In this document: positions 1 through 48,121 of the stretch, one piece after another
Position numbering within the stretch: the stretch's first letter is position 1
Layout of the letters: each line of letters starts with the position of its first letter
Origin: Escherichia phage vojen
Reading direction: 5' to 3' (one strand)
Length of the DNA stretch: 50,709 bases
Sequence record: NC_049824.1
Notes under the pieces: generated by a model
The model's database searches: none
Seen by the model: the letters and a program-made list of their open reading frames with translations, nothing else
What the model was told of the DNA's origin: nothing
Position numbers and translations under genes: made by a program

Positions 1-15
1 AACAAAAAGTGCTAT
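1..15 (-). promoter_or_regulatory. Conserved intergenic element copy, truncated at window edge (same copy as 50691-50709 if circular)
   Basis: Plus strand reads AACAAAAAGTGCTAT; the minus-strand reading ATAGCAC... directly abuts the TAA stop of gene 16..282. Confidence 0.4.
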
Positions 16-282
16 TTAGTCCAGGAATTCGATTTCACGTTCTCCAGTTAACGGATCTACAAGCCAGAATCCGAGCGGTTCACCGTAAACACCGCCATAG
101 AATCCAAGCGCCGCCAGATCTTCACCTTTAACGAATGCAAGGTTTCCGCTACGGCTTACGTGAGACACGTTAACGATAACCGGAAAGGTGCGATCCTTAA
201 ACGCAGGCCGCAGGGCGTAACATCCGTTATTGAGTAAACGGGCCTTGCGCTTAACTGGAATAGGTGCATTGATTCGCGCCAT
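16..282 (-). CDS. hypothetical protein (88 aa)
   Basis: ORF with GAGGAGA RBS upstream of ATG at 282; last gene of a tightly packed minus-strand cluster. Confidence 0.6.
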   Translation of the reverse strand: MARINAPIPVKRKARLLNNGCYALRPAFKDRTFPVIVNVSHVSRSGNLAFVKGEDLAALGFYGGVYGEPLGFWLVDPLTGEREIEFLD

Positions 283-1134: not shown

Positions 1135-1154
1135 GTTTTAACAAAAAGTGCTAT
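1135..1154 (-). promoter_or_regulatory. Conserved 20-bp element (minus-strand reading ATAGCACTTTTTGTTAAAAC)
   Basis: Exact match to the dispersed motif; lies upstream of minus-strand gene 799..1071; TACATT -10-like hexamer about 18 bp further on. Confidence 0.55.
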
Positions 1155-1440
1155 TTATCAACTGGCGATTATTCCATCTATTCCATTAATCAGGAATAAC
1201 AGGAATAACTCATTCGAGATCACATGGATTGTGAGATCTTGAGTTTGATCAATTTTAATCAGGTGATTAACTTTTTGTGTGGAGGGGATAGAGAAACTCG
1301 GTCCTCTTGCATCCTTTCCGGCAATCCTGGAGGGCGCAACTGTTGTCTTCTGTTATCGCTGTTATGCGTGTTATTCCGGCGTGGAATCGCATAACAAAAA
1401 ATAACAAGAAAAATCCATATAACATACTAAAAAATAAGGA

Positions 1441-1690: not shown

Positions 1691-1720
1691 TTGACACACC
1701 AGGTGACGGTAAATGATAAT
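1691..1720 (+). promoter_or_regulatory. Sigma70-like promoter for the plus-strand early block
   Basis: TTGACA (1691-1696), 18-bp spacer, GATAAT (1715-1720), about 30 bp upstream of the first early gene. Confidence 0.55.
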
Positions 1721-1751: not shown

Positions 1752-2222
1752 ATGAGTGAATCTGTATTTGCAAATGAGCTTCGCAAGGTTGCGATTGCGC
1801 TCGCGTCTGGATTGCACGAATCGATCCAGATACCTGAAAGATGGGTAAGGCAGCACCTGGAGGGCAAGAAGTCAGCCAGCAATGCTGGATCATATATCCG
1901 TCAGATTATGGGGCGCGTTCCAGAAGTGGCGGAGAAGGGGAGAGTTTCAGTCTCAAAGAAACCTTACGGCCCTGATAGCGAATATTTCGGAGAAAATTAC
2001 TTTGATGTGGCGATTGTTAGTGCGCCGAATCGCAGGGTATACAACAAGGCCGCGCTTGAGAAGGCTGTAGCGAAAGCAAAACGCCAGGTTGCTGAGTCGA
2101 TGCTTAAAGTCTCACCAAACCTAGCGAACTACTCGCCAGATGAATATGAAACACTTGCTAAGGCGATCGCAGACTTTCACGCGATCATTAAAGAAACATA
2201 TCTTAACAATGAGGAGCAATAA
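1752..2222 (+). CDS. hypothetical early protein (156 aa)
   Basis: ORF with GAGGAGG RBS; first gene after the promoter. Confidence 0.65.
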   Translation: MSESVFANELRKVAIALASGLHESIQIPERWVRQHLEGKKSASNAGSYIRQIMGRVPEVAEKGRVSVSKKPYGPDSEYFGENYFDVAIVSAPNRRVYNKAALEKAVAKAKRQVAESMLKVSPNLANYSPDEYETLAKAIADFHAIIKETYLNNEEQ

Positions 2223-2471
2223 ATGAGCAAACTTACTCTTGATGAACTGATGGAAAAAATTGATGAAGTTGGCTTTAACAAACTGGTTGATTTCCATTTG
2301 ACCGCATGTGAAATCACCGCGCAGGAGTTTAGCGACATGCTATCTGATGCGAGCGAGATTTACACAAGCCTATGCGGAAGAGAAATCAAAGTCATTGAAA
2401 TTGAAATGCCTGGAGATCCGGTATTTGCAAGGCTTGCGGCTGCATTCGATGAGGAGAATGTTGGACTCTGA
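2223..2471 (+). CDS. small acidic protein (82 aa)
   Basis: ORF with GAGGAG RBS; strongly D/E-rich with few basic residues. Confidence 0.6.
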   Translation: MSKLTLDELMEKIDEVGFNKLVDFHLTACEITAQEFSDMLSDASEIYTSLCGREIKVIEIEMPGDPVFARLAAAFDEENVGL

Positions 2472-2477
2472 GCGGAA

Positions 2478-2497
2478 ATAGCACTTTTTGTTAAAAC
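2478..2497 (+). promoter_or_regulatory. Conserved 20-bp element ATAGCACTTTTTGTTAAAAC
   Basis: Exact motif; followed by inverted repeat CCAGG...CCTGG and CATAAT at an 18-bp gap. Confidence 0.55.
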
Positions 2498-2553: not shown

Positions 2554-2739
2554 ATGGCACGTCGCATCACCAAAGACCTTAAAGTTCTGAACAAAGAAAA
2601 CGTAGTTAAAATCCTGGTTATCTGGGGATACAACGAAGAAGCAGCAAAGCAGAAGGTAGAAGCAGGTTATGAGCTGGCTGTAAAAGCAATGCCAAACGAC
2701 GACGCAAAAGGTATTGCAAACTATGTAGCTTTCTTTTAA
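2554..2739 (+). CDS. hypothetical protein (61 aa)
   Basis: ORF with GAGGAAAA RBS. Confidence 0.5.
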   Translation: MARRITKDLKVLNKENVVKILVIWGYNEEAAKQKVEAGYELAVKAMPNDDAKGIANYVAFF

Positions 2740-2754: not shown

Positions 2755-2940
2755 ATGAAAACGAAATTAGTCCATAAATCAGAAATCAAGATCGGCGATA
2801 CTGTGATTCACAACGGTGAGCTTAGAACTGTTGGCAAAGAGTCAATAAGCCACGATGAATTTATGGGGATCTTGTTGTTCGGTGACTCTTATCGTCTTGG
2901 TTATAAAATGGTTGAGCTTGTGGAAGAGGTAAAATTCTAA
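2755..2940 (+). CDS. hypothetical protein (61 aa)
   Basis: ORF; its TAA stop abuts the next motif copy. Confidence 0.5.
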   Translation: MKTKLVHKSEIKIGDTVIHNGELRTVGKESISHDEFMGILLFGDSYRLGYKMVELVEEVKF

Positions 2941-2960
2941 ATAGCACTTTTTGTTAAAAC
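2941..2960 (+). promoter_or_regulatory. Conserved 20-bp element ATAGCACTTTTTGTTAAAAC
   Basis: Exact motif directly after the stop codon; AATAAT at an 18-bp gap. Confidence 0.55.
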
Positions 2961-3038: not shown

Positions 3039-3971
3039 ATGTTAAAACTTGCTGACATTAAATTCCCGATCACCTTCGAATCTCGCGGCGTTGGTCATTT
3101 CATGTTTACCGACGAGAATACATGCACTAAGTTTAACGAATACGGAAGTCCAAACGCTTCAACAATGGAGATTGAACACTTCATTGAAGCGCACAATAAA
3201 CACTACAACTCACTTCGCGACTACGGCTATGCAATGCCAGGATACACCTGTTTTCACTACAAGCCATATAAAGGCCAGGTGTTACCAATGCGCGCACAGG
3301 ACATTGCGAGCGCTGCGACTTATGCGCGGGCAATTCACGCGCCAGAGAATGCAGAGCCACTAGTAAAAATGCACGCCTGCGACTACAAAAAATTGTGGTG
3401 CTTAAGCGTGGATAACATCAAGTATCCGATCGTATTCCGCACGGTTGGTAACTCAACGATTCGCTATACGTCACCAGACAACGGCGTTTATAGCGATGGT
3501 CAGAAATCAGAGTTGAAAGTTGATTTCTTTGTCAACGCTCATAACAAATTCAATCCACACAATGAAGAAGATAAGGTGTACTACGTGGAAGACATTACAA
3601 AACACTTGTTTGGAGAAACACCATTCGGCGGCGGAAAGACGTCAATTCAAGAAATCATTGGCGAGGAGATCCACAAGGCAGCCGTTGAAATGAAAGCGCC
3701 TGGAGGCTGGCGTATTGATAAGAGCGCCTTTGCCAATCAAGAAATCGTAACGCAGGGCGCCATTGAAGATATGCCAGTTGCCGCCACACTAAAAGGCGTT
3801 CAGCTTGATGATGGTATGTGGTTTGAAGTAACGGCAAAGCCAAAGACGATCGAGATTCATGATGATGTTGTTATTCTTCTGCTTCATTACGGTAGCGCAA
3901 AAAACCGTACCGTTGCGGGTGAGATTAGCATCAAGCGCGGAACGATGGTTAAGTGGAAGGTTAAGGTGTAA
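3039..3971 (+). CDS. hypothetical early protein (310 aa)
   Basis: Long ORF with AGGAGA RBS; no motif I can recognise. Confidence 0.65.
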   Translation: MLKLADIKFPITFESRGVGHFMFTDENTCTKFNEYGSPNASTMEIEHFIEAHNKHYNSLRDYGYAMPGYTCFHYKPYKGQVLPMRAQDIASAATYARAIHAPENAEPLVKMHACDYKKLWCLSVDNIKYPIVFRTVGNSTIRYTSPDNGVYSDGQKSELKVDFFVNAHNKFNPHNEEDKVYYVEDITKHLFGETPFGGGKTSIQEIIGEEIHKAAVEMKAPGGWRIDKSAFANQEIVTQGAIEDMPVAATLKGVQLDDGMWFEVTAKPKTIEIHDDVVILLLHYGSAKNRTVAGEISIKRGTMVKWKVKV

Positions 3972-3991
3972 ATAGCACTAATTGTTAAAAC
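3972..3991 (+). promoter_or_regulatory. Conserved element, variant ATAGCACTAATTGTTAAAAC
   Basis: Variant motif; TATAAT (4009-4014) sits inside a GGCC...GGCC dyad at a 17-bp gap. Confidence 0.5.
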
Positions 3992-4483: not shown

Positions 4484-5034
4484 TAGTTTTGATAATGAAA
4501 AAATACGAATTTGAACTTTGGGGAAGCAAATACCATTTTTCCACGAGCAAGCCGATTGTTGTAGTTGACCTTGACGGCACGTTATCCGATGGAACGCATC
4601 GCTTGCACCTGCTGCCGACAGAAGATTTGCACCTTACAGAAAGCTGGTCTGAGTTCAATAAGGCGGCTGTTGGAGATTCGCCGATTAAGAGCACGGTTGC
4701 AGTGGTTAACGGATTGTGGATGTCAGGATTTGCAATCGTTATCCTGACAGGGCGCAGCGATGAGGTGATGGCTGACACCTGCGACTGGTTAAATTATAAC
4801 GGCATCAAGTACGACGCGTTAATCATGCGCCGCAAGGAAGATAATCGAAAAGACACGATCATCAAAGAGGAAGTCTTGCGAGCTATCGGACTGGAAAACA
4901 TTGTGTGCGCTTTTGATGATTCGCCGAACGTGGTTAAGCACTTCCGCAGCCTGGGAATCACAACCTATCAGGTCACGGAATACGACAAGCCACATAATCA
5001 TATCAAATCGCATGGCGTGGAGGAATTGAAATGA
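4480..5034 (+). CDS. HAD-superfamily phosphatase (polynucleotide 3'-phosphatase / nucleotidase-like)
   Basis: VVVDLDGTL motif (HAD motif I, DxDGT) near the N-terminus; later Asp-rich motifs. Confidence 0.6.
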   Translation: MIVLIMKKYEFELWGSKYHFSTSKPIVVVDLDGTLSDGTHRLHLLPTEDLHLTESWSEFNKAAVGDSPIKSTVAVVNGLWMSGFAIVILTGRSDEVMADTCDWLNYNGIKYDALIMRRKEDNRKDTIIKEEVLRAIGLENIVCAFDDSPNVVKHFRSLGITTYQVTEYDKPHNHIKSHGVEELK

Positions 5035-5192
5035 CCTGGTTACTTTTAATCTTTGTCACAAGTTACAATTCCGCCGCTATTGAATCGCAAGAGTTCCACG
5101 GCGAATCAAGATGCCAGGAAGCACGAAAACAAGTTGTTCTCCACATGTCAGATAGTGGGAAAGATGTAACAGCGCTATGCGTTCGTAAATAG
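5031..5192 (+). CDS. small hypothetical protein with hydrophobic N-terminus (53 aa)
   Basis: ATGA overlap with the upstream stop; GGAGGAA RBS; TAG stop lies inside the next motif copy. Confidence 0.3.
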   Translation: MTWLLLIFVTSYNSAAIESQEFHGESRCQEARKQVVLHMSDSGKDVTALCVRK

Positions 5193-5208
5193 CACTTTTT
5201 GCAAAAAC
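5189..5208 (+). promoter_or_regulatory. Conserved element, variant ATAGCACTTTTTGCAAAAAC
   Basis: Variant motif; TATAGT at an 18-bp gap inside a GGGCTT...AAGCCC dyad. Confidence 0.5.
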
Positions 5209-5709: not shown

Positions 5710-5903
5710 TTCTTACTATAGCGCATTCATGCAGTGCGCTATGTTTAGATAACAACATGAGATCATGAAGATGCGAAACTTCGAAAAAATCGTATCCAAA
5801 AAGAAGCGATACAGCTACCACGAGCACCAAGAGATGAATCAACGCTATCGCAATAAGCGCCAGCGCAAAGGTAAACATTTCAGTAAACATGGAGAAAATC
5901 AAT

Positions 5904-6494
5904 ATGAAACGCGACATTATCATCCTTAACGGACCGCCAGGGGTTGGCAAAGGCACGCTTGCAGCATACTTAACGGGCCATCGTTACGCAGCCGTTAAAG
6001 CGTCGTTTAAACAGCCTATGTTTGATATTGCATTCTCCATGCTTGGCGTTTACCGATATGACGAATTCATTGATCTGTATAACGACCTCGAGCAGAAAGA
6101 AAAGCCTCAAGCAATCTTGCAAGGCAAGTCGCCTCGCCAGTTCATGATCTGGATTAGCGAAGAAGTTATGAAGCCAGCTTTTGGCGAGCAATATTTCGGA
6201 AATCGCATGGTTGAGCAAGTACACGAGATGTACAGAGATTTAGCTGTTGTAATTAGTGACGGCAGATTCCCTGAAGAAATCAAGCCGCTAGTTAAGGCAG
6301 GCCATGAAGTGCACATTTGCCGACTGCATCGCGAAGGCTTCACGTTTGATGGTGATTCACGAAACTATATTGACCTGAGCGGATACCATCACCGCGTAAA
6401 ACATTACGACTTCACAATGATTGATGGCGATCCAGAAAAGACTGTTGACGAGATCATCAAAACGGTCCAGTGGAAACACATTAAGATCAAATAG
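5904..6494 (+). CDS. P-loop nucleotide/polynucleotide kinase
   Basis: GPPGVGKGT Walker A close to the start; start moved to ATG with GGAG RBS; TAG stop lies inside the next motif copy. Confidence 0.55.
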   Translation: MKRDIIILNGPPGVGKGTLAAYLTGHRYAAVKASFKQPMFDIAFSMLGVYRYDEFIDLYNDLEQKEKPQAILQGKSPRQFMIWISEEVMKPAFGEQYFGNRMVEQVHEMYRDLAVVISDGRFPEEIKPLVKAGHEVHICRLHREGFTFDGDSRNYIDLSGYHHRVKHYDFTMIDGDPEKTVDEIIKTVQWKHIKIK

Positions 6495-6510
6495 CACGAA
6501 TTGCTAAAAG
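6491..6510 (+). promoter_or_regulatory. Conserved element, variant ATAGCACGAATTGCTAAAAG
   Basis: Variant motif overlapping the kinase stop; TATAAT (6529-6534) at an 18-bp gap after an imperfect dyad. Confidence 0.45.
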
Positions 6511-7508: not shown

Positions 7509-7551
7509 TGTTAACCGCGCCGCTTAGGTGGCGCTAAAAGGAGGAAACAAA

Positions 7552-7839
7552 ATGGCTAAAAGCAATCGTAAAATGTTGATTAACGCATTCGAAAAGGCAG
7601 CGCTTGAGCGTGGTTGGAATGACTCATTTCACACGGCAAACTGTATCCGACGTTACGGATTCAAGAATTGCCGATCCTGGGCGCGTCAAATGGCTTCATG
7701 GTATGATCTTGATGCGCATTACCTTGATATGGATTGCGCTCTGGTTGAAATGATTGAGCAGGCAGCATTAGAGGATCGACCATTAACGCAATCTGATTTT
7801 GACGATTTTGTGCGCGATGAAATCTATTACATGAGCTAA
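7552..7839 (+). CDS. hypothetical protein (95 aa)
   Basis: Start moved to ATG with AAGGAGG RBS; TAA stop abuts the next motif copy. Confidence 0.55.
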   Translation: MAKSNRKMLINAFEKAALERGWNDSFHTANCIRRYGFKNCRSWARQMASWYDLDAHYLDMDCALVEMIEQAALEDRPLTQSDFDDFVRDEIYYMS

Positions 7840-7858
7840 TAGCACTTTTTGTTAAAAC
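7839..7858 (+). promoter_or_regulatory. Conserved 20-bp element ATAGCACTTTTTGTTAAAAC
   Basis: Exact motif sharing a base with the upstream TAA; TAAAGT-like hexamer at an 18-bp gap. Confidence 0.5.
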
Positions 7859-10003: not shown

Positions 10004-10525
10004 ATGGCTAAAAACGTTGAGCCAGCAGTAAAGGCTTGCAATTTTAAAAAACTATATAATAAGCAATATGGCGATATAGCAAAAATGACAAAGGCGCACA
10101 AGTACACGCCTGAGCAGGTATTTGATCTGGCTGTTCGTTACTTTACTTGGGCTGAGGAAAACCATATACAGGCTGCGGAAACGGCATCCTTTCAGGGTGA
10201 CGTGTACGAAAGCAAGATTCACAAGCCGCGCGTGTTCACCTTAAACGGATTCCGATTATTCGCTGGCCTTTCTGCTTCCGTACTTGAAAAATGGCGACGT
10301 GAGCCAGGATTCAGCGAGGTTATGGACTTTATCGACGGCGTTGTTTACGAGCAAAAATTCCAGCTTGCCGCAAACAATATTGTTAACGCCGGATTCATTG
10401 GTAAGGAGATCGGCATTGAAAAGCCAGCCACCGTTACCATTGAGAATAACACAAGCGCCAGCGTTGACGCTGTAACGGCGGAGGAAGTCAAAGAGGCGGT
10501 AATTGACATTCTGGAGAAGATATAA
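10004..10525 (+). CDS. putative terminase small subunit
   Basis: Position immediately upstream of the large terminase with TAATG overlap; AAGGAGGG RBS; TATAAT at 9970-9975 upstream. Confidence 0.5.
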   Translation: MAKNVEPAVKACNFKKLYNKQYGDIAKMTKAHKYTPEQVFDLAVRYFTWAEENHIQAAETASFQGDVYESKIHKPRVFTLNGFRLFAGLSASVLEKWRREPGFSEVMDFIDGVVYEQKFQLAANNIVNAGFIGKEIGIEKPATVTIENNTSASVDAVTAEEVKEAVIDILEKI

Positions 10526-12093
10526 TGCTGATTTGGGAAGACTTAACAGCGGCGCAAAAACGCGCCGTTAAGGAAATGAGCGAATATTCATTCGAAAAGA
10601 TGATCCGCATTTGGTTTCAACTTCTCCAGGGGCAAAGGTTCTTAGGAAACTGGCATTTCAGTTACCTATGCAGCGAAGTTGAAAAAATCATCAAAGGCGA
10701 GTCACAGAATGTAATTTTCAACATAACGCCAGGTAGTGGTAAAACAGAGATATTCTCGATCCATATGTCACCTTATGCGTCATTGAAAAGTAAGAAGGTG
10801 AGAAATCTTAATTTGTCGTTTAGTGATGGCCTTGTCCAGCAGAACAGCAACCGCATCAAAGAGATTATTGGTTCTCCAGAATGGCAGGAGTTATGGCCTG
10901 GAAAGCTGGCAAAGGCGAGCGCAAAGGATTTGATTGTAACCGATGGCGGCAAGGTTAAATTGCAAGTTAACTCGCGTTCTATCGGTGGTCAGGTTACTGG
11001 TCTGCGTGGCGGCTACATGGACGATGGATTTACTGGTATGCTGGTTCTTGACGATCCAGACAAGCCGGATGACATGCTTTCTAAGGTGAAGCGCGAAGCC
11101 GGACACATGCGCCTAAAGAACACGGTGCGATCGCGTCGAATGAAAGACACTACGCCAATTGTGATGGTTCAGCAACGTCTACACGTCAATGATTCAACAT
11201 GGTTCATGACAAACGGCGGCATGGGCGGCATCCAGTTTAAGGTGGTCAGTATTCCGGCGCTCGTTACTAAGGAATATCGCGAAACGCTTCCTGATTGGTT
11301 AAAGCCTGAGTTTGATCGCGATGTTTTGTCCAGTAAGCCAGTGATGATTGATGGCGTTGCTCATTATTCATTCTGGCCTGCTAAGGAAAGCGCGGAGGAA
11401 TTACTTGCACTTCGCAATGCTGATCCTTACACGTTCGCTAGTCAGTATCAGCAACAGCCTGTTGCGCTTGGCGGTAACGTGTTTAAAACAGAGTGGTTTC
11501 AGTATTACGGCAGCAGCGAGAAATGCACGCTACCAAAACCGGATCGCTTTGAATATACATTTATCACGGTTGATACCGCACAGAAAACAGGGGAGCTTAA
11601 CGACTACTCCGTGATCTGTTATTGGGGGATGTATAAAGATCGCGTTTACTTCATTGATGGTGTTCGCGGAAAATGGGAAGCACCAGACCTTGAGACTAAT
11701 TTTGTTGCGTTCGTTAATCAGTGCTGGAAGCGCAATAAAGAATGCGGAACGTTGCGAAGGATTCATGTTGAAGATAAGTCATCTGGCACTGGCTTGATTC
11801 AGAGCGCAGCGAAAAAAATCATGATCAAGATTAATCCCGTTCAGCGAGATAAAGATAAGGTTACGCGAGCAATGGACGCAGCGCCAGTAATGCGCGCCGG
11901 ACGCGTAGCACTTCCAGAATCGCATCCTATGCTGGCTGAGATACTAGCTGAAGTTGCGGCGTTCACATTCGATGATTCGCATCCTAATGATGATATTGTT
12001 GATAACATCATTGATGCGGTTAACATTGAAATGAACATGGCAGATGATCCGGTTGGAAGAATGAAAAAATTGGCAGGTTTGCGGAACAAATAG
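10525..12093 (+). CDS. terL: terminase large subunit
   Basis: Walker A-like PGSGKTE, Walker B-like LVLDDPD, C-terminal nuclease-like region, 522 aa, followed by portal. Confidence 0.85.
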   Translation: MLIWEDLTAAQKRAVKEMSEYSFEKMIRIWFQLLQGQRFLGNWHFSYLCSEVEKIIKGESQNVIFNITPGSGKTEIFSIHMSPYASLKSKKVRNLNLSFSDGLVQQNSNRIKEIIGSPEWQELWPGKLAKASAKDLIVTDGGKVKLQVNSRSIGGQVTGLRGGYMDDGFTGMLVLDDPDKPDDMLSKVKREAGHMRLKNTVRSRRMKDTTPIVMVQQRLHVNDSTWFMTNGGMGGIQFKVVSIPALVTKEYRETLPDWLKPEFDRDVLSSKPVMIDGVAHYSFWPAKESAEELLALRNADPYTFASQYQQQPVALGGNVFKTEWFQYYGSSEKCTLPKPDRFEYTFITVDTAQKTGELNDYSVICYWGMYKDRVYFIDGVRGKWEAPDLETNFVAFVNQCWKRNKECGTLRRIHVEDKSSGTGLIQSAAKKIMIKINPVQRDKDKVTRAMDAAPVMRAGRVALPESHPMLAEILAEVAAFTFDDSHPNDDIVDNIIDAVNIEMNMADDPVGRMKKLAGLRNK

Positions 12094-12109
12094 CACGAAT
12101 CGACAAACC
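12090..12109 (+). promoter_or_regulatory. Degenerate copy of the conserved element (ATAGCACGAATCGACAAACC)
   Basis: Overlaps the terL TAG stop; TATAAT follows after only 4 bp, so geometry differs from canonical copies. Confidence 0.3.
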
Positions 12110-16345: not shown

Positions 16346-16365
16346 CGTTTAACAAAAAATGCTAT
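16346..16365 (-). promoter_or_regulatory. Conserved element, inverted relative to the downstream plus-strand gene
   Basis: Plus strand reads TTTAACAAAAAATGCTAT; orientation is opposite to the canonical arrangement. Confidence 0.4.
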
Positions 16366-16411
16366 CATTGGGGCGTTACATACTAACAGCCTTTATATAT
16401 GGAGGAAGAAA

Positions 16412-20106: not shown

Positions 20107-20125
20107 TTTTAACAAAAAGTGCTAT
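20107..20125 (-). promoter_or_regulatory. Conserved element, inverted relative to the downstream plus-strand gene
   Basis: Plus strand reads TTTTAACAAAAAGTGCTAT immediately before the RBS of the tail chaperone gene. Confidence 0.45.
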
Positions 20126-20138
20126 CAAGGAGAAAGAA

Positions 20139-26000: not shown

Positions 26001-26043
26001 CCGTATAATTCAACAAATCAAATAGCACAAAAGGTGAAAAAGC

Positions 26044-29000
26044 ATGGCTGAAAATATGATAACGGGAAGTAAGGGCGGATCATCAAAACCTTATGTTCCG
26101 AAAGAGATGGAAGATAACCTGATCTCAATCAACAAAATCAAAATCCTTCTTGCCGTTTCCGATGGTGAGTGCGATCCAGATTTTACACTTCGCGATCTGT
26201 ATCTTGATGATGTTCCGGTAATTGCAGACGACGGAACTATTAACTACCAGGGTGTGAAAGCTGAATTTCGACCTGGAACGCAGACGCAAGATTACATCCA
26301 GGGGTTTACTGACACATCAAGCGAAGTGACGCTGGCGCGTGACATTACGACGACAAATCCTTATGTAATTTCCGTAACCAACAAAACATTATCGGCCATC
26401 AGAATCAAAATGCTAATGCCAACAGGCATTAAGCAAGAGGACAACGGCGATCTTGTCGGCGTTAAGGTTACTTATGCTGTTGATATGGCTGTTGACGGAG
26501 ACTCTTACAAAGAAGTATTGCGAGACACTATCGAAGGTAAAACGCGGTCAGGTTACGACAGGAGCCGAAGGATTGACCTTCCGGAATTTAATGATCGCGT
26601 ATTACTTAGGGTTAGAAGGGTTACGGCAGACAGCGCATCTTCTCGTGTTACTGATCTGATTAAGCTACAAAGTTACGCTGAGGTTATTGATGCAAAATTC
26701 CGTTATCCTCTGACTGGTCTTGTATACGTTGAATTTGACAGTGAGTTGTTCCCTAACCAGATCCCTAACATTTCAATCAAGAAGAAATGGAAGTTGATTA
26801 ATGTTCCGAGCAATTACGATCCGGTAATGCGAGAGTATCACGGTTCATGGGACGGTACGTTCAAGAAAGCGTGGTCGAACAATCCGGCTTGGGTACTTTA
26901 TGACATTATCACAAACCAGCGATACGGATTAGATCAGAGAGAACTTGGTGTACAGGTTGACAAATGGAGTCTTTACGAAGCTGCGCAATACTGCGATCAG
27001 AAAGTGCCTGACGGAAAAGGCGGTACAGAGCCGCGTTATCTATGCGACGTTGTGATTCAAAGCCAGATTGAGGCTTATCAGCTTATTCGTGATATTTGCT
27101 CAATCTTCCGAGGCATGAGCTTTTGGAATGGCGAGAGCTTGTCAATCGTCATTGATAAGCCGCGCGATCCGTCGTACATCTTCACCAATGACAACGTTGT
27201 TGATGGTGATTTTCAGTACACAACAGCAAGCGAAAAGAGCATGTACACGCAGTGCAACGTGACGTTCGACGACGAACAAAACATGTATCAACAGGACGTA
27301 GAGGGCGTATTCGACACCGAGGCAGCATTGCGCTTTGGATACAATCCTACAAGCATAACCGCGATCGGATGTACACGCAGGAGTGAGGCTAATCGGCGCG
27401 GTCGATGGATACTAAAAACCAACTTGCGCAGCACTACGGTAAACTTTGCTACTGGACTGGAAGGCATGATCCCATCAATAGGTGATGTGATTGCTATTGC
27501 TGACAATTTTCACAGCAGTAACCTTAAATTAAACCTATCAGGGCGCGTGATGGAAGTTTCCGGCTTGCAGGTGTTCGCTCCGTTTAAGATTGACGCGCGA
27601 CCAGGTGATTTCATTATCATCAACAAGCCGGACGGAAAGCCAGTTAAGCGCACAATCTCAAAAGTAAGCGGTGACGGAAAAACTATTGAACTAAACATTG
27701 GGTTTGGGTTTGAAGTTAAACCTGACACGGTTTTTGCAATCGACCGCACTGATATTGCATTGCAGCAATACGTTGTAACGAGTATCGGCAAAGGTGATGA
27801 TGATGATGAGTTTACATACTCCATCACGGCTGTTGAATATGATCCTAACAAATACGACGAGATTGATTACGGAGTAAACATTGACGACAGACCAACTTCA
27901 ATTGTCCAGCCTGACACAATGGCAGCGCCTGAAAATGTGCAAATATCCTCATACTCGCGAATTGTCCAGGGTGCAAGCGTTGAAACAATGGTTGTGTCGT
28001 GGGATAAAGTACCTTACGCATCGCTGTATGAAATGCAATGGCGAAAAGGTGATGGCAACTGGCTGAATACACCACAGACCGCAAACAAAGAAATTGAGGT
28101 TGAAGGTATTTATTCAGGAAACTACCAAGTAAGGGTCAGATCTGTTTCTGCTTCCGGTTCCACGTCGCCGTGGTCAAGAATTGTGACAGCATCACTGACT
28201 GGTAAGGTGGGAGAGCCAGGCGCGCCAGTTAACTTAACTGCATCCGACAATGAGGTTTTTGGCATTCGTGTAAAATGGGGCATGCCTGAAGGGAGTGGAG
28301 ACACTGCATACATTGAGCTTCATCAGTCGCCAGATGGAACAGCGGAAAACTCAAGCCTATTAACGCTGATCCCATATCCACAATATGAATACTGGCACGG
28401 GACGCTTCCGGCTGGTCATGTTGTATGGTATAGAATCCGAAGTGTTGACAGAATCGGCAACGTTTCCGGCTGGACTGATTTTGTTAGAGGCATGGCTTCA
28501 GATGATGTTGAGGCTGTTTTAGGAGATATTCTTGATAAGATTTTTGATACCGAAGCAGGAAAGGATCTGAAAGAGAACGCCATTGATAGCGCAAACAAAA
28601 TCAAGGATCAGGCACAAAGCATCATTCAAAACGCATTGGCGAATGATACAGACGTTAGGATTATGAGGAAGGAGAACGGAAAACGCAAAGCCGAGTTTAG
28701 ACAATCAATCCAATTGATCGCAAGTGAAACTGAAGCGCGCGTTACCGCAATGACGCAACTTAAGGCTGAATTTGACGAGGAAATAACTAGCGAAGTAACG
28801 AGACTCGATCAGGCAATTGCAACAGAATCGGAAACGCGAGCAACAGCCATTGAGGAATTGAAATCACAGATTGGTGATGATATTCAGGGGCAATTAACGC
28901 GGGTTGAGGAAGCGATTTCAAACGAAACAGAGGCGCGCGTTTCGGCTGATACAGCACTAACAGCGAAGTTTGGAGATGTTGAATCGGCGCTTACTGAAAA

Positions 29001-29469
29001 ACTTGATTCATGGGCTGGCGTTAATGGAGTTGGCGCACAGTACGCAATGAAACTTGGATTGACATACAACGGGCAGAAGTACAGCGCCGGAATGGTCATG
29101 CAGCTATCAAACAGCGCTCAAGGGTTGATTTCACAAATCCTTTTTGATGCTGGAAGATTTGCGATCATGACGAGTTCTACCGGAGGGTCGTATACATTGC
29201 CTTTTGTGGTCGAAAACAACCAAGTTTTCATTAACAGCCTGTTAGTGAAAAATGGTTCAATCACCAATGCGATGATCGGTAACTTCATCCAATCAAACAA
29301 TTACGTTTGGAATCAAACAGGATGGAGGCTGGATAAAAACGGCACGTTTGAAAATTATGGCTCTACTCCTGGAGAGGGAGCCATGAAAATGACAAACGAA
29401 ACGATCAGCGTTAGGGATGCAAACGGCGTTTTGCGTGTTCAGATTGGTAGGCTGACTGGTACGTGGTAA
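26044..29469 (+). CDS. central tail fibre / host specificity protein (lambda gpJ-like)
   Basis: 1141 aa; position after gpI; coiled-coil-like stretch near the C-terminus. Confidence 0.85.
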   Translation: MAENMITGSKGGSSKPYVPKEMEDNLISINKIKILLAVSDGECDPDFTLRDLYLDDVPVIADDGTINYQGVKAEFRPGTQTQDYIQGFTDTSSEVTLARDITTTNPYVISVTNKTLSAIRIKMLMPTGIKQEDNGDLVGVKVTYAVDMAVDGDSYKEVLRDTIEGKTRSGYDRSRRIDLPEFNDRVLLRVRRVTADSASSRVTDLIKLQSYAEVIDAKFRYPLTGLVYVEFDSELFPNQIPNISIKKKWKLINVPSNYDPVMREYHGSWDGTFKKAWSNNPAWVLYDIITNQRYGLDQRELGVQVDKWSLYEAAQYCDQKVPDGKGGTEPRYLCDVVIQSQIEAYQLIRDICSIFRGMSFWNGESLSIVIDKPRDPSYIFTNDNVVDGDFQYTTASEKSMYTQCNVTFDDEQNMYQQDVEGVFDTEAALRFGYNPTSITAIGCTRRSEANRRGRWILKTNLRSTTVNFATGLEGMIPSIGDVIAIADNFHSSNLKLNLSGRVMEVSGLQVFAPFKIDARPGDFIIINKPDGKPVKRTISKVSGDGKTIELNIGFGFEVKPDTVFAIDRTDIALQQYVVTSIGKGDDDDEFTYSITAVEYDPNKYDEIDYGVNIDDRPTSIVQPDTMAAPENVQISSYSRIVQGASVETMVVSWDKVPYASLYEMQWRKGDGNWLNTPQTANKEIEVEGIYSGNYQVRVRSVSASGSTSPWSRIVTASLTGKVGEPGAPVNLTASDNEVFGIRVKWGMPEGSGDTAYIELHQSPDGTAENSSLLTLIPYPQYEYWHGTLPAGHVVWYRIRSVDRIGNVSGWTDFVRGMASDDVEAVLGDILDKIFDTEAGKDLKENAIDSANKIKDQAQSIIQNALANDTDVRIMRKENGKRKAEFRQSIQLIASETEARVTAMTQLKAEFDEEITSEVTRLDQAIATESETRATAIEELKSQIGDDIQGQLTRVEEAISNETEARVSADTALTAKFGDVESALTEKLDSWAGVNGVGAQYAMKLGLTYNGQKYSAGMVMQLSNSAQGLISQILFDAGRFAIMTSSTGGSYTLPFVVENNQVFINSLLVKNGSITNAMIGNFIQSNNYVWNQTGWRLDKNGTFENYGSTPGEGAMKMTNETISVRDANGVLRVQIGRLTGTW

Positions 29470-30771: not shown

Positions 30772-30791
30772 CGTTTAGCAAAAAGTGCTAT
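30772..30791 (-). promoter_or_regulatory. Conserved element, variant (minus-strand reading ATAGCACTTTTTGCTAAACG)
   Basis: Variant motif upstream of the lipoprotein gene with TATAGT at a ~17-bp gap. Confidence 0.5.
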
Positions 30792-30920
30792 TCTTGTTCT
30801 TTTGTTATTCGGTGTTCTTAAATCTGCGGAGGCTTAAATTTAGCTCAAAATGTGAGCAACAATAGAGCGCTATACATACAGATAAATATATATACATACA
30901 TACAAATCAATAAGTTAGTA

Positions 30921-31218: not shown

Positions 31219-32280
31219 ATGAATAAGTTTATGGCGTACACCAGCGAAGAAATGAGCAATGAGCTTTATCACGATCCAGAAGCGTGGACGGCTGATTATG
31301 TTAGCGGCTCAAGCCTGGCAGAGATTTACAGCACATGCCCGGCAGCGTGGAAGTTCAAGCCGCGTGACGATAAGAGCAAGGCGCTAGTTTTCGGTACGCA
31401 GTCGCATACCAACTTTGAAAGCAAGGAGCTTTTCGAAAAAACATATCGCCGTGCGCCATCGCCAGAAGACTTTAAGGATCTGATAACTAGTCAAACTGCG
31501 CTTGCCGCAAAACTGAAATCATTTGGCCTGAAAGGTACAACCGGAAAGACTTATCCAGACCTTATCAAAATGTTGGTTGACTGCGGAGAAGACCTTAACG
31601 TCATGTGGTTAATCGACATGATCGCAGAAAGTCAGGCCAGGGCAGATGGGGTTCAGTTAATCGAAGCTAAAGATTACGATGCGTGCGTGGCAATGCGCCA
31701 GGTTCTGGAATCAATACCGGAACATAACGCATGTATGAATAGCAAGACGGCACAACGTGAATTATCGTTGTTCGGTGAAATTAACGGCGTAAAAGTCAAA
31801 GTGCGATGCGATCACGTTGACGTAACAAAGAACGTCACCGCAACGCTGATTGATGGTTACGATGAAAAAGGTCAGCCGATTTGCCGCGATATTATTTATC
31901 CAGAGGCCATTGTGATCACAGACTACAAAACTACAATGAGCGCGAATCCGGCTGAGTTTATGCGCCTGGCTTACAATCACGGCTATTATTTGAAAATGGC
32001 GTTGCAATGTGATTTATTCAGAAAAGCGTATCCAGAAGAAAAGCGACCTATAGTTGTGCGACTGTTAGCGCAAGAGAAGAAAGAGCCTTATTTGCCGTTG
32101 GCTTTCCGCATGAATAGCGAGCAATTGAAGATCGGGCGCATTCAGTACATGAGCGTAATTAACCAGTTTGCCATGTGCCAGCAACATGACGTTTGGCCTT
32201 CGTATTCAAACGGCGAGCCGGAGGTTTGCCTTGATACTCCTGATTGGGTGCGACGCCAGTTTAAGCAATATCTTATTTAA
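31219..32280 (+). CDS. putative recombination exonuclease (PD-(D/E)xK family)
   Basis: Candidate catalytic segments CDHVD and ITDYKT; directly upstream of Erf and SSB. Confidence 0.55.
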   Translation: MNKFMAYTSEEMSNELYHDPEAWTADYVSGSSLAEIYSTCPAAWKFKPRDDKSKALVFGTQSHTNFESKELFEKTYRRAPSPEDFKDLITSQTALAAKLKSFGLKGTTGKTYPDLIKMLVDCGEDLNVMWLIDMIAESQARADGVQLIEAKDYDACVAMRQVLESIPEHNACMNSKTAQRELSLFGEINGVKVKVRCDHVDVTKNVTATLIDGYDEKGQPICRDIIYPEAIVITDYKTTMSANPAEFMRLAYNHGYYLKMALQCDLFRKAYPEEKRPIVVRLLAQEKKEPYLPLAFRMNSEQLKIGRIQYMSVINQFAMCQQHDVWPSYSNGEPEVCLDTPDWVRRQFKQYLI

Positions 32281-32361
32281 ACAGCACAAATAGCTAAACA
32301 AATGAAAAATGCGGTGTTATAATTCACCGCATAAGTTAACAACAAGAGTAAGGAAATAAAC

Positions 32362-38901: not shown

Positions 38902-38956
38902 ATACACCTCAAACAAAAAAGCCTGACAGATGATAACATCATGCCAGGCATTGTTT

Positions 38957-39430
38957 TTAGCAATTAGTGCTTTCAGGTTTATACAGGAATCCGCCAGGTT
39001 CATAATCTGACATTCTTACCACTCGCAACATTTCACGCTTATCACATCTCTTTGTGAGCGGTTTTCCATTGGAATCAAATCGCAGATCTGGACGGCAGAA
39101 TGAAGCGCGATAGCCTTGACAGCCATACTTTTTGTAATCGTTATGCACCTTTTGAGCGCCAGCGGCTGAAATCATACCGCGAACGCGCCACTGATTTACA
39201 GTTTGCTGGCTAACGTTAAGACGCTTTGCCATTGCTGACACGCTGCCGTAATACTCAATAAGAATGTCAAGCCGTGCTTTTAGTCCGGCGCGCACTTCAT
39301 CTTTTAAAACATAGTATCCTGTAGGGCGCTTGCGCTTTTTCTTATCTTTACCCCGTCGAGTTCCGTTATTGCCATTGATTGTGCGTTTGTCAATCTTACC
39401 AGTTGATACTGCGATTCGCTGTTCTTTCAT
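38957..39430 (-). CDS. putative DNA-binding regulator (basic N-terminus, HTH-like segment)
   Basis: KDKKKRKRP basic stretch; LNVSQQTVNQWR HTH-like segment; GGAGA RBS; start abuts a conserved element in the divergent region. Confidence 0.5.
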   Translation of the reverse strand: MKEQRIAVSTGKIDKRTINGNNGTRRGKDKKKRKRPTGYYVLKDEVRAGLKARLDILIEYYGSVSAMAKRLNVSQQTVNQWRVRGMISAAGAQKVHNDYKKYGCQGYRASFCRPDLRFDSNGKPLTKRCDKREMLRVVRMSDYEPGGFLYKPESTNC

Positions 39431-39444
39431 TATTCATTCTCCAA

Positions 39445-39464
39445 TAGCATTTTTTGTTAAACGA
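39445..39464 (+). promoter_or_regulatory. Conserved element, variant ATAGCATTTTTTGTTAAACG
   Basis: In the divergent region between the HTH gene and helicase; TATTAT at a ~16-bp gap. Confidence 0.5.
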
Positions 39465-39519: not shown

Positions 39520-41565
39520 ATGATTCCAAACATTGAAAAGCAAATATCAGCACTTGGTGAAGCGGTAATTAAATCCATTCAGGAGCGATTCACTGTTGGC
39601 GAGATTGTGCCTTACCCTTACCAGTGCGTTGCATACGCTGAGATCGCAAAGCGTATGAAAAATTATGAGCATCCATTCTTTGTTAAAGCGTCCGTATCGG
39701 CTGGCAAAACATTGATGTTTGCAATGGTTGCTCACCAGTGCCGGAAAATGGGCTTGAAAATGATGGTACTTGCTCGCCAGGCTGAGATTGTGGATCAGGA
39801 TTCTGAAGAGATAACAAATCTTGGTGTGCCGAACTCCATCTATTGTGCAGGACTGAAGACAAAAAGCGCATACTTTCCGATCGTTGTTGGTTCTGAGGGA
39901 ACTGTAGTTAATGGACTGTTTAAAGCGCTTGGCGACTATGTTCCGCACGTTATCGGGATCGACGAGTGTCACCAGGTGGATTGGGAAGACCTTGCCGACG
40001 CAATAGAGAAAGACGAGTCATTTTTACAAATGACAACTAAGAAAGGCGAAAAAGTACCAAATCCAGATTATGACATAACAAAGGGAAGCAGGAACAGAAA
40101 TACAGAGTTCCTGATTGGTGAGGATGGCTTGCCAATGGAGGGAACAGGCCGCACACAATACACTGTCATTATCATGGAAATGATGCGCCGCTGCCGGAAA
40201 ACATATGGTCATGAACTGCGCATATTTGGCATGACTGGATCGGAGTTTCGCGGCGTAGTCCCGATCCTGGTGGAAGACAAAAAACAGAAAGGATTCTGGC
40301 GTGAACAGGTTACTAATATTGACACCAACTACCTGATCAAATTCGGTTCTGTTGTGCCAACAAATTTTGGCGACGTTGGCGATCTAGGGTATGACCTTTC
40401 AGAGTTTGAGGCATCCAGTGAGGATGGCGTTGCAGACTTTGACGCTAAAACGCTTCGCAGGATGGAACAAAAAATTCATGAAGAAGCGACCATGACAAAG
40501 CGCATCATGGCGAAAGTTCACGAGATCTGTAAAAACCGCAACGGCGTACTTGTGACATGTGCAGGAGAAAGGCATTGCAAAGAGGCAGCGGCAGCGTTGC
40601 CACCTGGAACGACTTACAGGATAATTACTGGTAAGACTGGCGACAATCAGCGCAAGGAGTGGTTAAGGGAAGCATACGAAGGGAAAGTAAAATACATCTT
40701 CCAGGTTCAGGCGCTAACAACTGGCGTTAACGTGCCGTTTTGGGATACGTCGGTTATATTGCGTAAGATTGGATCTCTTACGTTGCTGATTCAGCTTTTA
40801 GGACGCGGAATGCGACTTCTTAAGAAATGGCATAAGGAGCAAGGCTTCAAGAAAGATGATCACCTGGTTATGGATTTTTCAGGAACGATGGACGAGTTAG
40901 GTGAGCTTTATTTTGATCCGATACTTGAACAGGCGCAGCATCAGAAGCGATTCAGGAACGGTAAAGATCCGAAGCCTTGTCCTGTTTGTGGAACTCTTAA
41001 CAGCTATTATGCTCGTCGTTGTATGCACGTAGACGAAAACGGCAACAGATGCGAGTGGTTCTTTAAATTCAGGACATGTGATGATCAGATTGACCCACGC
41101 ACTAAAAAGATTATTCAGCGCGGCTGTGGAACTAAAAATGATATTGCGGCCAGGGTATGCAGACATTGCGACATGTCATTGATTGACCCTAACGAGAAGT
41201 TAAGCGGAAAGCACTACACAAAAAACGACTGGTTTCAGGTGCAATCTTTCTCGGTTGACATGACGAAAAACCAGAAAGGGATAATATTTAATTATGAGCT
41301 TTCCGATGGCATAGACACTTTCAGAGCGCGTGAAATATTTTTCCCTGAATCAGAAAGCCAAATTTGTCGCGCAAAATGGAGAAATGTTGCTCTTAAGCAC
41401 ATACCGGATCGCCGTATTGCTGGCATGGTGGCGAGCTATCGTAATGCACGTAAAATCATGCAATATGTGAATCACATCATGCCGCCATCGCGTGTTACTC
41501 ACAGAAAGACTAGCAAGAGTGAAGATAATTTGTACAAGAAGGACTTTAATTATGGCAATGACTGA
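39520..41565 (+). CDS. SF2 DNA helicase with C-terminal zinc-ribbon motifs
   Basis: Walker A SAGKT; DExH-like GIDECHQ; C-terminal CPVCG...RRC and CGTKN...CRHC; start moved from in-motif TTG to ATG. Confidence 0.65.
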   Translation: MIPNIEKQISALGEAVIKSIQERFTVGEIVPYPYQCVAYAEIAKRMKNYEHPFFVKASVSAGKTLMFAMVAHQCRKMGLKMMVLARQAEIVDQDSEEITNLGVPNSIYCAGLKTKSAYFPIVVGSEGTVVNGLFKALGDYVPHVIGIDECHQVDWEDLADAIEKDESFLQMTTKKGEKVPNPDYDITKGSRNRNTEFLIGEDGLPMEGTGRTQYTVIIMEMMRRCRKTYGHELRIFGMTGSEFRGVVPILVEDKKQKGFWREQVTNIDTNYLIKFGSVVPTNFGDVGDLGYDLSEFEASSEDGVADFDAKTLRRMEQKIHEEATMTKRIMAKVHEICKNRNGVLVTCAGERHCKEAAAALPPGTTYRIITGKTGDNQRKEWLREAYEGKVKYIFQVQALTTGVNVPFWDTSVILRKIGSLTLLIQLLGRGMRLLKKWHKEQGFKKDDHLVMDFSGTMDELGELYFDPILEQAQHQKRFRNGKDPKPCPVCGTLNSYYARRCMHVDENGNRCEWFFKFRTCDDQIDPRTKKIIQRGCGTKNDIAARVCRHCDMSLIDPNEKLSGKHYTKNDWFQVQSFSVDMTKNQKGIIFNYELSDGIDTFRAREIFFPESESQICRAKWRNVALKHIPDRRIAGMVASYRNARKIMQYVNHIMPPSRVTHRKTSKSEDNLYKKDFNYGND

Positions 41566-41983
41566 TAAAGGCGATTATCTGGAGTTTTACGAAAGAGATC
41601 CGACGGATACGCTAAAAGAGGAATCTCACCAGATCGGGGCGTTTCAATGGTTAACTTATGCTCATCCTGAATTTCTTGCCTGGCATACTAAAAATGAGGG
41701 CGACAAGGGGATCGCCACCGCAATGATGGATCAGCAAGCAGGACTCGTTAAGGGCGTAAGTGATTTTATCATCCTGATTGGATTGAAAGGCCGCTACCCT
41801 TTCGCGGCTATTGAGATGAAACGCGTCAATAAGTCTGGCAAGGGTAAGTCTTCACCAGTCAGCAAGGATCAAAAAGCCTTCTTGCGTCGTGTGCGTGAGC
41901 TTGGCGGATTCGCTGCCGTAACATACGGATATAAGCAATTCATGATCGCGGTAGAATACATGATAAATAGCACTTTTTGTTAA
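41552..41983 (+). CDS. VRR-NUC-like nuclease
   Basis: C-terminal segment with SDFIIL...AIEMKR consistent with a PD-(D/E)xK/VRR-NUC core; last five codons encoded by the next motif copy. Confidence 0.5.
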   Translation: MAMTDKGDYLEFYERDPTDTLKEESHQIGAFQWLTYAHPEFLAWHTKNEGDKGIATAMMDQQAGLVKGVSDFIILIGLKGRYPFAAIEMKRVNKSGKGKSSPVSKDQKAFLRRVRELGGFAAVTYGYKQFMIAVEYMINSTFC

Positions 41984-41986
41984 AAC
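41967..41986 (+). promoter_or_regulatory. Conserved 20-bp element ATAGCACTTTTTGTTAAAAC
   Basis: Exact motif followed by GGCGC...GCGCC dyad and CATAAT at an 18-bp gap. Confidence 0.55.
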
Positions 41987-42746: not shown

Positions 42747-42750
42747 AACA

Positions 42751-42990
42751 ATGCAGAAAGAAAGAAGCGTTTATTTAAATGAAACTGGCGAATGGTTGTT
42801 ATTTCGCGCTATGGTTTGCGAGGCGCTTGATAAAAACGATTTCATAAAACCGCTATTAGGTTGCGATCCGTGGGAGTTTACAAGCGCTCTTGACATGAGC
42901 TTTGAGGAAACAAGAAAACTACCACTTGAAAAATGGCATGAGCAGATCGGTAAAGACTTGCAAGAGTTTTACGAATCCGCGTCAAAATAG
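42751..42990 (+). CDS. hypothetical protein (79 aa)
   Basis: Start moved to ATG with GGAG RBS; TAG stop lies inside the next motif copy. Confidence 0.45.
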   Translation: MQKERSVYLNETGEWLLFRAMVCEALDKNDFIKPLLGCDPWEFTSALDMSFEETRKLPLEKWHEQIGKDLQEFYESASK

Positions 42991-43006
42991 CACTTTTTGT
43001 TAAAAC
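42987..43006 (+). promoter_or_regulatory. Conserved 20-bp element ATAGCACTTTTTGTTAAAAC
   Basis: Exact motif followed by GCCCGG...CGGGC dyad and CATAAT at an 18-bp gap. Confidence 0.55.
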
Positions 43007-48101: not shown

Positions 48102-48121
48102 CATTTAACAAAAAATGCTAT
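48102..48121 (-). promoter_or_regulatory. Conserved element, variant (minus-strand reading ATAGCATTTTTTGTTAAATG)
   Basis: Variant motif followed by TGCGG...CCGCA dyad around TATTAT at an 18-bp gap; overlaps the TAG stop of gene 48118..48339. Confidence 0.5.

Follow-up and report, generated by a model that had tools for sequence, protein, structure and literature searches.

The DNA analysed here is the 50,709-nucleotide (nt) sequence of Escherichia phage vojen (NC_049824.1), hereafter called the window, in which a conserved 21-nt direct repeat (DR) recurs at gene junctions and contains the upstream genes' stop codons. By its sequence, the window is a T1-like siphophage, and it is probably the whole genome. 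Its first 20 kb share about 95% nucleotide identity with Shigella phages ESh4 and pSf-1 and with Escherichia phage herni (Drexlerviridae, Tempevirinae, Hanrivervirus). In the first lines shown above, the open reading frame (ORF) 2755..2940 ends with the TAA at 2938-2940, where the T lies just before the DR copy at 2939..2959 (+) and the two A's are positions 1 and 2 of the repeat. The predicted -10 box AATAAT follows at 2979-2984, and the next gene begins with the ATG at 3039.

The conserved element is the published DR of the T1-like phages, aaATAGCACnnnTTGnTAAAA, and the consensus of the window copies is AAATAGCACTTTTTGTTAAAAC; the repeat itself is already known. In the sections consulted, the 2024 re-annotation of phage TLS lists 18 intergenic copies (DR1-DR18), oriented with transcription and located about 76 nt before start codons, and the same DR is reported there for T1, Rtp and Rogue1 (PMC11447400). 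These sections give only three canonical sigma70 promoters for TLS, and they leave the function of the DR open, with a stoperator, an enhancer site and an UP element as suggestions (PMC11447400). A text search of the same paper found no mention of an overlap with stop codons, and its transcription section and Table S1 describe neither a fixed extended -10 box nor a nested hairpin (PMC11447400).

A mismatch scan and a position weight matrix (PWM) gave 19 PWM hits on the two strands of the window, in addition to one copy split over its ends, as compared with 0-2 hits in shuffled sequence. Seven copies match the 22-nt consensus with 0-1 mismatch, five of them exactly, and every strong copy points towards a gene. 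The traits that define the DR family, namely the consensus, the many copies, their orientation and a T1-like carrier, are all present. T1, TLS, Rtp, KP36 and pSf-1 have 16-23 copies per genome. The TLS and window copies belong to the same sequence family, with the same T, G and A subtypes, a similar copy number, the same orientation and a similar distance to the start codon (about 76-79 nt); no structural difference separates them, and the window holds another set of copies. The whole window has no Rfam match, and a known RNA family is rejected. The split copy reflects the ends of the record: the first 14 nt are identical to the last 14 nt, and both lie inside one DR copy, of which the 5′ part is at 1..18 (-; reverse complement TAAATAGCACTTTTTGTT) and the 3′ part is at 50688..50709 (-).

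Stop codons within the direct repeat

The sequence-only reading had listed nine stop codons embedded in the element, and all nine agree with the ORF list and the sequence. We number each stop codon by the motif position of its first base. At position 0, where the T stands just before the motif and motif positions 1-2 supply the AA, lie the TAA at 2938-2940 and the TAA at 3969-3971, which ends ORF 3039..3971 at the copy at 3970..3990 (+; next ATG 4045). At position 4, the motif's own TAG stops five ORFs: 5031..5192 (TAG 5190-5192; copy 5187..5207, +; next ATG 5264), 5889..6494 (TAG 6492-6494; copy 6489..6509, +; next ATG 6565), the large terminase gene 10525..12093 (TAG 12091-12093; a weak copy of 15.1 bits at 12088..12108, +), 42664..42990 (TAG 42988-42990; copy 42985..43005, +; next ATG 43063) and, on the minus strand, 48118..48339 (TAG 48120-48118; copy 48103..48123), which is followed by a helicase gene with its start codon at 48050. 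The copy at 7837..7857 (+) starts with TAATAG: its TAA at 7837-7839 stops ORF 7528..7839, the motif's TAG is next in the same frame, and the following gene begins with the ATG at 7915. Finally, the VRR-NUC gene 41492..41983 reads into the copy at 41965..41985 (+) as AAT AGC ACT TTT TGT TAA, so that it ends in the residues NSTFC and stops at motif positions 17-19 (TAA 41981-41983), before the ATG at 42045.

Four more embedded stop codons go beyond those nine. The TAG at 48794-48796 (-) stops the methyltransferase-like ORF 48794..49498 (-) in the copy at 48779..48799 (-; next start codon 48722). The TAA at 16-18 (-) stops ORF 16..282 (-) at position 0 of the split copy. The TAA at 32278-32280, also at position 0, stops the RecE-like gene 31219..32280 at a weak copy of 17.3 bits (32279..32299, +) in which CAG replaces TAG, and this junction has the same stop offset of 0 in TLS and Rtp. 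The TAA at 38957-38959 (-), at motif positions 17-19 of the weak copy at 38955..38975 (-), stops a regulator gene that takes its final residues, ESTNC, from the motif.

As a result, 13 of the 14 window copies that follow a gene on the same strand hold the stop codon of that gene. The exception is the copy at 2476..2496 (+), the only non-overlapping junction, where the upstream gene 2223..2471 stops with the TGA at 2469-2471, 4 nt before the DR; its cassette has the extended -10 sequence tggCATAAT (hexamer 2516-2521) and the ATG at 2554. The 13 stop codons begin at motif positions -1 to 17, whereas random copy placement gave 0.37 such stops on average and never more than 4 in 20,000 trials. When the stop codons at the 14 junctions were placed uniformly between -60 and +19, none of 20,000 trials reached 13 or more (P = 0). 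All six of the TAG-ending ORFs in a heuristic set of 90 genes end in the motif TAG.

The NSTFC ending of the VRR-NUC gene can be traced to a 1-nt deletion relative to pSf-1 just before the DR (window 41964/41965, pSf-1 5303), which changes ..MMK* to ..MINSTFC*. The VRR-NUC orthologues in pSf-1, T1, TLS, Rtp and KP36 all stop at the motif TAG, and the sequence comparison indicates that the tail is not a designed ending. The deletion itself could be a real polymorphism or a sequencing error.

Overlap and frame preference in related phages

We examined the 76 DR copies in the curated annotations of T1, TLS, Rtp and KP36, as well as 80 Drexlerviridae loci from IMG/VR, which provided 269 distinct contexts, including 220 with an upstream ORF of at least 40 amino acids (aa). 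In the four annotated genomes, 52 of the 76 copies contain an annotated stop codon, starting at position 4 (28 cases), 17 (8), 0 (7), 1 (4), 3 (2), 10 (2) or -1 (1), and 28 of the 45 TAG stops of these genomes are the motif TAG. In the metagenomic set, 178 of the 220 stop codons (81%) overlap the DR and only 8 lie 3-30 nt upstream; the others lie at least 31 nt upstream, which leaves room for a terminator. The frame of the TAG is favoured over the other two by 125 : 33 : 20 in the metagenomic contexts and by 34 : 9 : 9 in the annotated genomes. Rather than standing at variable distances without a preferred phase, the stop codons of the relatives thus keep to the motif and favour one frame.

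This preference may reflect the cost of the different endings, since stopping at the TAG would cost one constrained residue, stopping at the TAA at position 17 would cost about five, and a stop in the third frame needs a T of its own. The motif-encoded tails of the regulator vary by genus (ESTNC, DSTDC, NSIFS or none), and a DR copy supplies such a tail in the window (38957-38975, -), in T1 (35979) and in TLS (35224). At three junctions where the window, pSf-1 and herni have different upstream genes, these genes stop at the TAG at position 4 or the T-AA at position 0; the one exception is the 2223..2471 gene, shared by the window and pSf-1, with its TGA 4 nt upstream. In T1, a DR copy with a good -10 box (46140-46160, -) lies wholly within the 3′ end of an HNH endonuclease gene, which reads through the copy in the third frame, left open by the motif.

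Anatomy of the predicted promoter cassette

How is the sequence downstream of the DR organized? Using the DR as the anchor, we aligned 85 copies found in the window, T1, TLS, Rtp and KP36. The aligned sequences describe a cassette of about 78 nt, consisting of the DR, a 19-nt spacer, an extended -10 box (TGnTATAAT), C-A at -1/+1, the leader ATCGAAACGA, a Shine-Dalgarno sequence and an ATG at motif position 79 (interquartile range (IQR) 77-81, n = 88). Variation within the DR is almost absent at positions 3-9 and 13-20. In 66 of the 85 copies, 19 nt separate the DR from the best -10 hexamer, and in the hexamer at positions 41-46, A42 (-11) is found in 76 copies and T46 (-7) in 74. G39 (-14) is present in 72 copies and is often preceded by T (T at -15 in 42), so that the hallmark of an extended -10 promoter, a TG one base before a TATAAT-like hexamer, is recognizable. 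Downstream of the hexamer, C52 and A53 are conserved and fit -1/+1. The predicted +1 is accordingly at position 53, with transcripts expected to start AUCGAAAC... On this numbering, the DR spans -52 to -32, and its dyad TAGCA-N5-TG(C/T)TA is centred at position 11, at about -42. The symmetry of the dyad is complete only in copies with C at position 16 (45/85); the G-type copy at 6489 has such a perfect dyad, TAGCA-N5-TGCTA. The leader (C)ATCGAAACGA at positions 53-63 (e.g. 2528-2538 and 48747-48737), which starts at the predicted +1, recurs in many cassettes and in all genera.

Known promoter classes do not account for this arrangement. The TTGnTA of the repeat is rejected as a -35 box, because it lies 22 nt from the -10, too far for a canonical promoter. 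A canonical sigma70 scan misses nearly all of the DR sites, which fits the three canonical promoters of the TLS paper (PMC11447400). Within 1-9000, canonical promoter-like matches number 7, fewer than in shuffled sequence (18.5 +/- 4.6), and the only near-consensus one, TTGACA-18-GATAAT at 1691..1720 (+), precedes the first rightward gene 1752..2222 (DUF7174) in a position equivalent to TLS P01. A sigma54 promoter (TGGCAC-N5-TTGC) is also rejected: the motif TAGCAC-N3-TTG(C/T) is 2 nt short, has AG for GG and is followed by a -10 box. We infer that a family-specific class of promoters uses the DR as its upstream recognition block. Its information content of about 30 bits and its position near -42, before an extended -10 box, would suit a factor that recognizes a specific sequence and works in the manner of a class II activator.

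A hairpin nested in the cassette

The 38 nt at positions 21-58 fold much better than shuffled sequence, with a mean z-score of -2.67 and 65% of the copies below -2. The hairpins are GC-rich, with a median stem of 9 bp and a loop of 5 (e.g. 3998-4022, 5197-5220 and 48072-48096), and they fall into two classes: a spacer stem ending at position 41, and a stem that surrounds the -10 box and reaches position 52, the base before +1. In the window, spacer hairpins precede the -10 boxes TATAAT at 6529-6534, CATAAT at 42005-42010, CATAAT at 43025-43030 and tggCATAAT with its hexamer at 48759-48754 (-), and the enclosing class surrounds TATAAT at 4009-4014 and TATTAT at 48083-48078 (-); the TATAGT at 5227-5232 lies in a hairpin loop. 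The 7837 copy has the -10 box TAAAGT at 7877-7882. The stem sequences differ between copies and at orthologous junctions, and the pairing is kept.

A hairpin is present in 51 of the 60 copies with an embedded stop codon, as compared with 5 of the 26 in which an upstream gene is absent or separated by a gap (Fisher 8e-9). Because the hairpin is tied to the embedded stop codon, it appears to belong to the upstream message and not to the promoter, and we infer that it is an attenuator or a 3′-end stabiliser of that message. The hairpins are mostly rejected as classical intrinsic terminators, since the U tract is mostly absent. At 38955 (-), the -10 box of the primase promoter lies within the hairpin, after which comes TTTTTT, and T1 has an annotated terminator at the same place (35930-35971); these sequence features suggest a true terminator nested in the primase promoter. 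The terminase stop codon in the 12088 copy is likewise followed by a terminator-like hairpin and a T run. Three features seem not to have been described before: an extended -10 box at a fixed place, a geometry with its centre at -42 and a hairpin that accompanies an upstream gene.

Origin of the embedded stop codons

Why do so many genes end inside the repeat? In the reading that we consider probable, the embedded stop codons are a passive by-product of a promoter-associated DNA signal in a genome with no free spacer, and translation is not coupled across the junction. Two of the three frames meet a stop codon within the DR, TAG at 4-6 and TAA at 17-19, and in the remaining frame a preceding T forms T-AA with the first two A's of the repeat. 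Among the 85 aligned copies, including those where no gene ends, G6 and A18 are found in 85/85, and A5 and A19 in 84/85. The stop bases are equally invariant in the divergent and antisense copies, which argues that they are kept for the DNA signal and not for stopping translation. The by-product reading is further supported by the unrelated upstream genes that end in the same DR in the window, pSf-1 and herni, and by the VRR-NUC gene, in which a 1-nt indel moves the stop from the TAG to the second stop codon of the motif.

Under the by-product reading, the absence of unused spacer would let each upstream ORF run to the cassette and end at the first in-frame stop codon there, and the stop codons would represent an opportunistic use of the promoter signal. 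Translation of the next gene would begin independently at the ribosome-binding site of that gene; the transcript would either come through the junction from upstream or start about 26 nt before the ATG. The hairpin between the DR and +1 would be the 3′-end element of the upstream message, nested in the next promoter. The junction could then be viewed as an interleaved gene end and promoter, analogous to the PeSL cassettes of the T4-type phages.

Several points weigh against the by-product reading. Random phase would not produce the frame bias, and to account for it one must also assume a cost for tails encoded by the motif. That gaps of 3-30 nt are nearly absent shows that abutment is actively selected, and this selection could have a functional cause. 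The counts pool orthologous junctions, which are not fully independent. A run of at least four T's follows only about 9 of the 56 hairpins, and 41 of 56 have at most two T's in the next 8 nt. The literature searched yielded no transcription start sites, transcriptomes, RNA 3′ ends or protein-binding data for T1-like phages, and the roles of the promoter, the +1 and the hairpin are deduced from conservation alone.

The three-frame stop property could instead have been selected for itself. In that case, the DR would be a portable adaptor joining a gene end to a promoter, and also a homologous joint at which genes are gained, lost or swapped by DR x DR recombination. Breakpoints of homology among the window, pSf-1 and herni coincide with the DR 5′ edge in 4/24, 6/25 and 7/24 cases, with about 0.3 expected; exact examples in the window are 2475, 3965/3970 and 5188. 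However, these counts partly register a single event twice, once from each of two genomes, and two breakpoints stem from the ends of the window. Furthermore, the window's circular junction corresponds to pSf-1 minus about 490 nt between two DR cassettes, a segment that holds two small genes in both pSf-1 (region 14790-15789) and herni. Either these 490 nt were lost by a DR-to-DR deletion, or the assembly collapsed at the repeat. The adaptor account also draws on the different genes that all end in the same DR, on the VRR-NUC frameshift buffered by the second motif stop, on the RecE-like and Erf-like recombinases encoded by the phage, and on the precedent of PeSL.

In 206 related loci, however, 4 of 66 breakpoint clusters lie at the DR, above the random value of 0.8 and about as many as at any gene boundary. 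The DR is therefore rejected as a preferred recombination hotspot, being enriched relative to random placement and not relative to other gene boundaries. In addition, the TAG and TAA are equally invariant where there is no upstream gene, so that a DNA signal alone explains them, and the third frame is not closed by the motif itself. We regard selection of the stop codons as an adaptor as rather unlikely. We see no better prospects for the broader proposal that the DR cassette is the Drexlerviridae counterpart of PeSL, a portable unit that closes any ORF, holds a 3′ hairpin and restarts transcription from an extended -10 promoter through a family-specific factor at -42; the early regions would then gain and lose genes mainly by DR x DR recombination, and the stop codons would be kept partly for the adaptor role.

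Translation could also be coupled to transcription, if the stop codon were held at a set distance from the hairpin and the terminating ribosome controlled attenuation or prevented Rho-dependent polarity. The association of the hairpin with an upstream ORF ending in the DR and the near absence of 3-30-nt gaps agree with this mechanism, and the hairpin starts later when the stop codon is at position 17 (median 27) than when it is at position 4 (median 23). The relation is not monotonic, however, as the hairpins that follow a stop codon at position 0 start latest (median 31), and a ribosome footprint is rejected as the determinant of hairpin position. The U tracts are mostly missing, and the groups compared are confounded by shared ancestry. 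These observations make such attenuation coupling quite improbable.

The sequence-only reading had offered a choice between an extremely compact genome and coupled termination and initiation. Its first half holds, in view of the 81% overlap and the 8 gaps of 3-30 nt among the 220 contexts. The second half, in which ribosomes that stop in the motif re-initiate downstream and the stop position is functionally required, can appeal to the highly regular geometry of stop and motif and to the fixed distance from the motif to the ATG at position 79. In contrast, the gap from stop to ATG has a median of 72 nt (IQR 68-79, minimum 22) at these junctions and 3 nt at junctions without the motif, where ATGA-type overlaps occur. 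Nearly every downstream start codon is preceded at 5-13 nt by GGAG, GAGG or AGGA, and the DR copies without an upstream gene drive their genes through the same leader. The stop codons use three frames and six offsets, and both a stable hairpin and a conserved extended -10 box with its C-A start context lie between the stop codon and the next start codon. Coupled translation is thus very improbable, and termination and initiation are linked in another sense: the hairpin of the upstream gene is interleaved with the promoter of the downstream gene.

That the overlap is a product of chance or annotation, because ORFs close at their first stop codon and a motif containing TAG and TAA must end any ORF in those frames, is scarcely credible, given that the genes concerned are real annotated ones (terminase, RecE, methyltransferase, VRR-NUC and the regulator), that 13 overlaps were observed against 0.37 expected, that third-frame genes abut the motif exactly (7 TAA/TGA stops at position 0 in four genomes) and that 3-30-nt gaps are nearly absent.

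Copies without an upstream gene and a candidate reader

Six window copies have no gene on the same strand ending beside them. The copy at 1136..1156 (-; 33.6 bits) forms the first leftward promoter, with no upstream gene, no hairpin, a predicted -10 box TACATT at 1116-1111 and a start codon at 1071. The copy at 30773..30793 (-) similarly has no upstream gene and no hairpin, and it is followed by TATAGT at 30754-30749 and by the start codon of a cor-like gene at 30717. A marginal DR-like copy of 12.3 bits at 26020..26040 (+) precedes the tail gene 26044..29469; 57 nt and a terminator separate the end of the upstream gene from this copy. The copy at 39442..39462 (+), the predicted helicase promoter, has no hairpin; it is divergent from the regulator gene and is flanked by the predicted canonical promoter of that gene on one side and by the regulator start codon on the other.

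The remaining two copies are antisense to late genes. One, at 16347..16367 (-), lies just upstream of the major head gene, has the weak -10 sequence tgtTATGCG and is conserved in T1 (15068, -), TLS (15024, -) and pSf-1. The other, at 20107..20127 (-), lies between the major tail gene and the tape-measure chaperone gene, points into the terminator at 20042-20066 and is conserved in T1 (18832, -) and pSf-1. Both have weak or shifted -10 boxes and no hairpin, and they are kept across genera. The aim of one of them into a bidirectional terminator suggests a short antisense RNA or a protein-binding site.

Which protein reads the DR? A weak candidate is the product of the regulator gene 38957..39430 (-), a 157-aa protein with a Cro/YdaS-like helix-turn-helix (phrog_2856, 'transcriptional regulator') that is conserved in all of the Drexlerviridae examined. 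In TLS, the regulator is driven by one of the three canonical promoters. A DR copy stands between the regulator promoter and the start codon. However, its putative recognition helix varies (SQQTV, SNQTV, NLKTV, TPQAV and SIQVV) while the DR is constant, which weakens the link. The regulator homologues found in 841 phage records and 80 IMG/VR loci all come from enterobacterial Drexlerviridae with the same DR, and this set contains no outgroup for an analysis of co-variation. About 20 records named as Campylobacter jejuni phages hold T1-like sequence, and the regulator in one of them (MG065638, 'Campylobacter phage A15a') is 100% identical to that of the window; these records are probably mislabelled or contaminating coliphage sequences. 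The proteins of the first early gene 1752..2222 and of 2554..2739, the gene after the first DR promoter, match only DUF7174 and DUF7421, respectively, and neither match hints at a function.

Significance of the cassette

The stop overlap itself shows tight gene packing in a 50-kb phage; it follows from the published repeat and matters little. The anatomy of the cassette makes the question of DR function testable, as it predicts about 15-20 extended -10 promoters per genome, each with a 21-bp box at -52 to -32 and a predicted +1, and it explains why standard promoter finders see about three promoters in T1-like phages. It also provides an annotation rule: a gene that enters a DR ends at the TAG at position 4, the TAA at position 17 or the T-AA at position 0, and about 78 nt separate the first base of the DR from the start of the next gene. 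Indels near gene ends are buffered by the second stop codon. T1-like phages are common laboratory and fermentation contaminants and candidates for phage therapy, and to our knowledge their transcription programme is essentially unmapped.

Comparison with known systems

The DR copies resemble the stoperators of phage L5, an analogy drawn in the consulted sections of the TLS paper, in that many asymmetric sites lie in short intergenic spaces in one orientation relative to transcription (PMC11447400). They differ in standing at a fixed 19 nt from the -10 box and at a fixed distance from the ATG, which fits a promoter part and not a block to elongation. T1-like phages are virulent, and we know of no repressor in them.

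The middle promoters of T4 offer a second parallel, as a phage-specific box (TGCTTtA in T4, TTGCTAAAA here) replaces the -35 element before a good -10 box, and a few canonical promoters serve the first genes. In T4, the centre of the MotA box is near -30 and about 12 nt separate the box from the -10, whereas the DR ends 19 nt from the -10; no homologue of MotA or AsiA was identified. The DR may also bear a likeness to the Lrp consensus, YAGHAWATTWTDCTR.

In promoter geometry, the DR cassette resembles the CRP/FNR class II and extended -10 promoters, which share the TG before the hexamer, the lack of a functional -35 element and a partly dyad site near -42. A class II activator site is centred at -41.5 and overlaps the -35 region. 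The DR differs in its asymmetric flanks (AAA on both sides), and its start site is a predicted one.

In overall layout, the DR cassette is most like the PeSL cassettes of the T4-type phages RB49 and phi1, each of which opens with the stop codon of the gene before it and includes an early promoter, a Shine-Dalgarno sequence and the start codon, with a stem-loop mostly between the -35 and -10 elements or over the -10 (PMC2839356, PMC4122927). Promoter, terminator and recombination activities have been experimentally shown for PeSL (PMC2839356, PMC4122927). The two kinds of cassette have in common this layout, a GC-rich stem-loop, neighbouring small genes of unknown function and a place at the boundaries of indels. 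PeSL has consensus sigma70 -35 and -10 elements and a low-information, AT-rich upstream region, whereas the DR cassette has a box of about 30 bits at -52 to -32 and no usable -35 element. The DR cassette, known from sequence alone and found in another phage family, is thus an analogue of PeSL and not a homologue.

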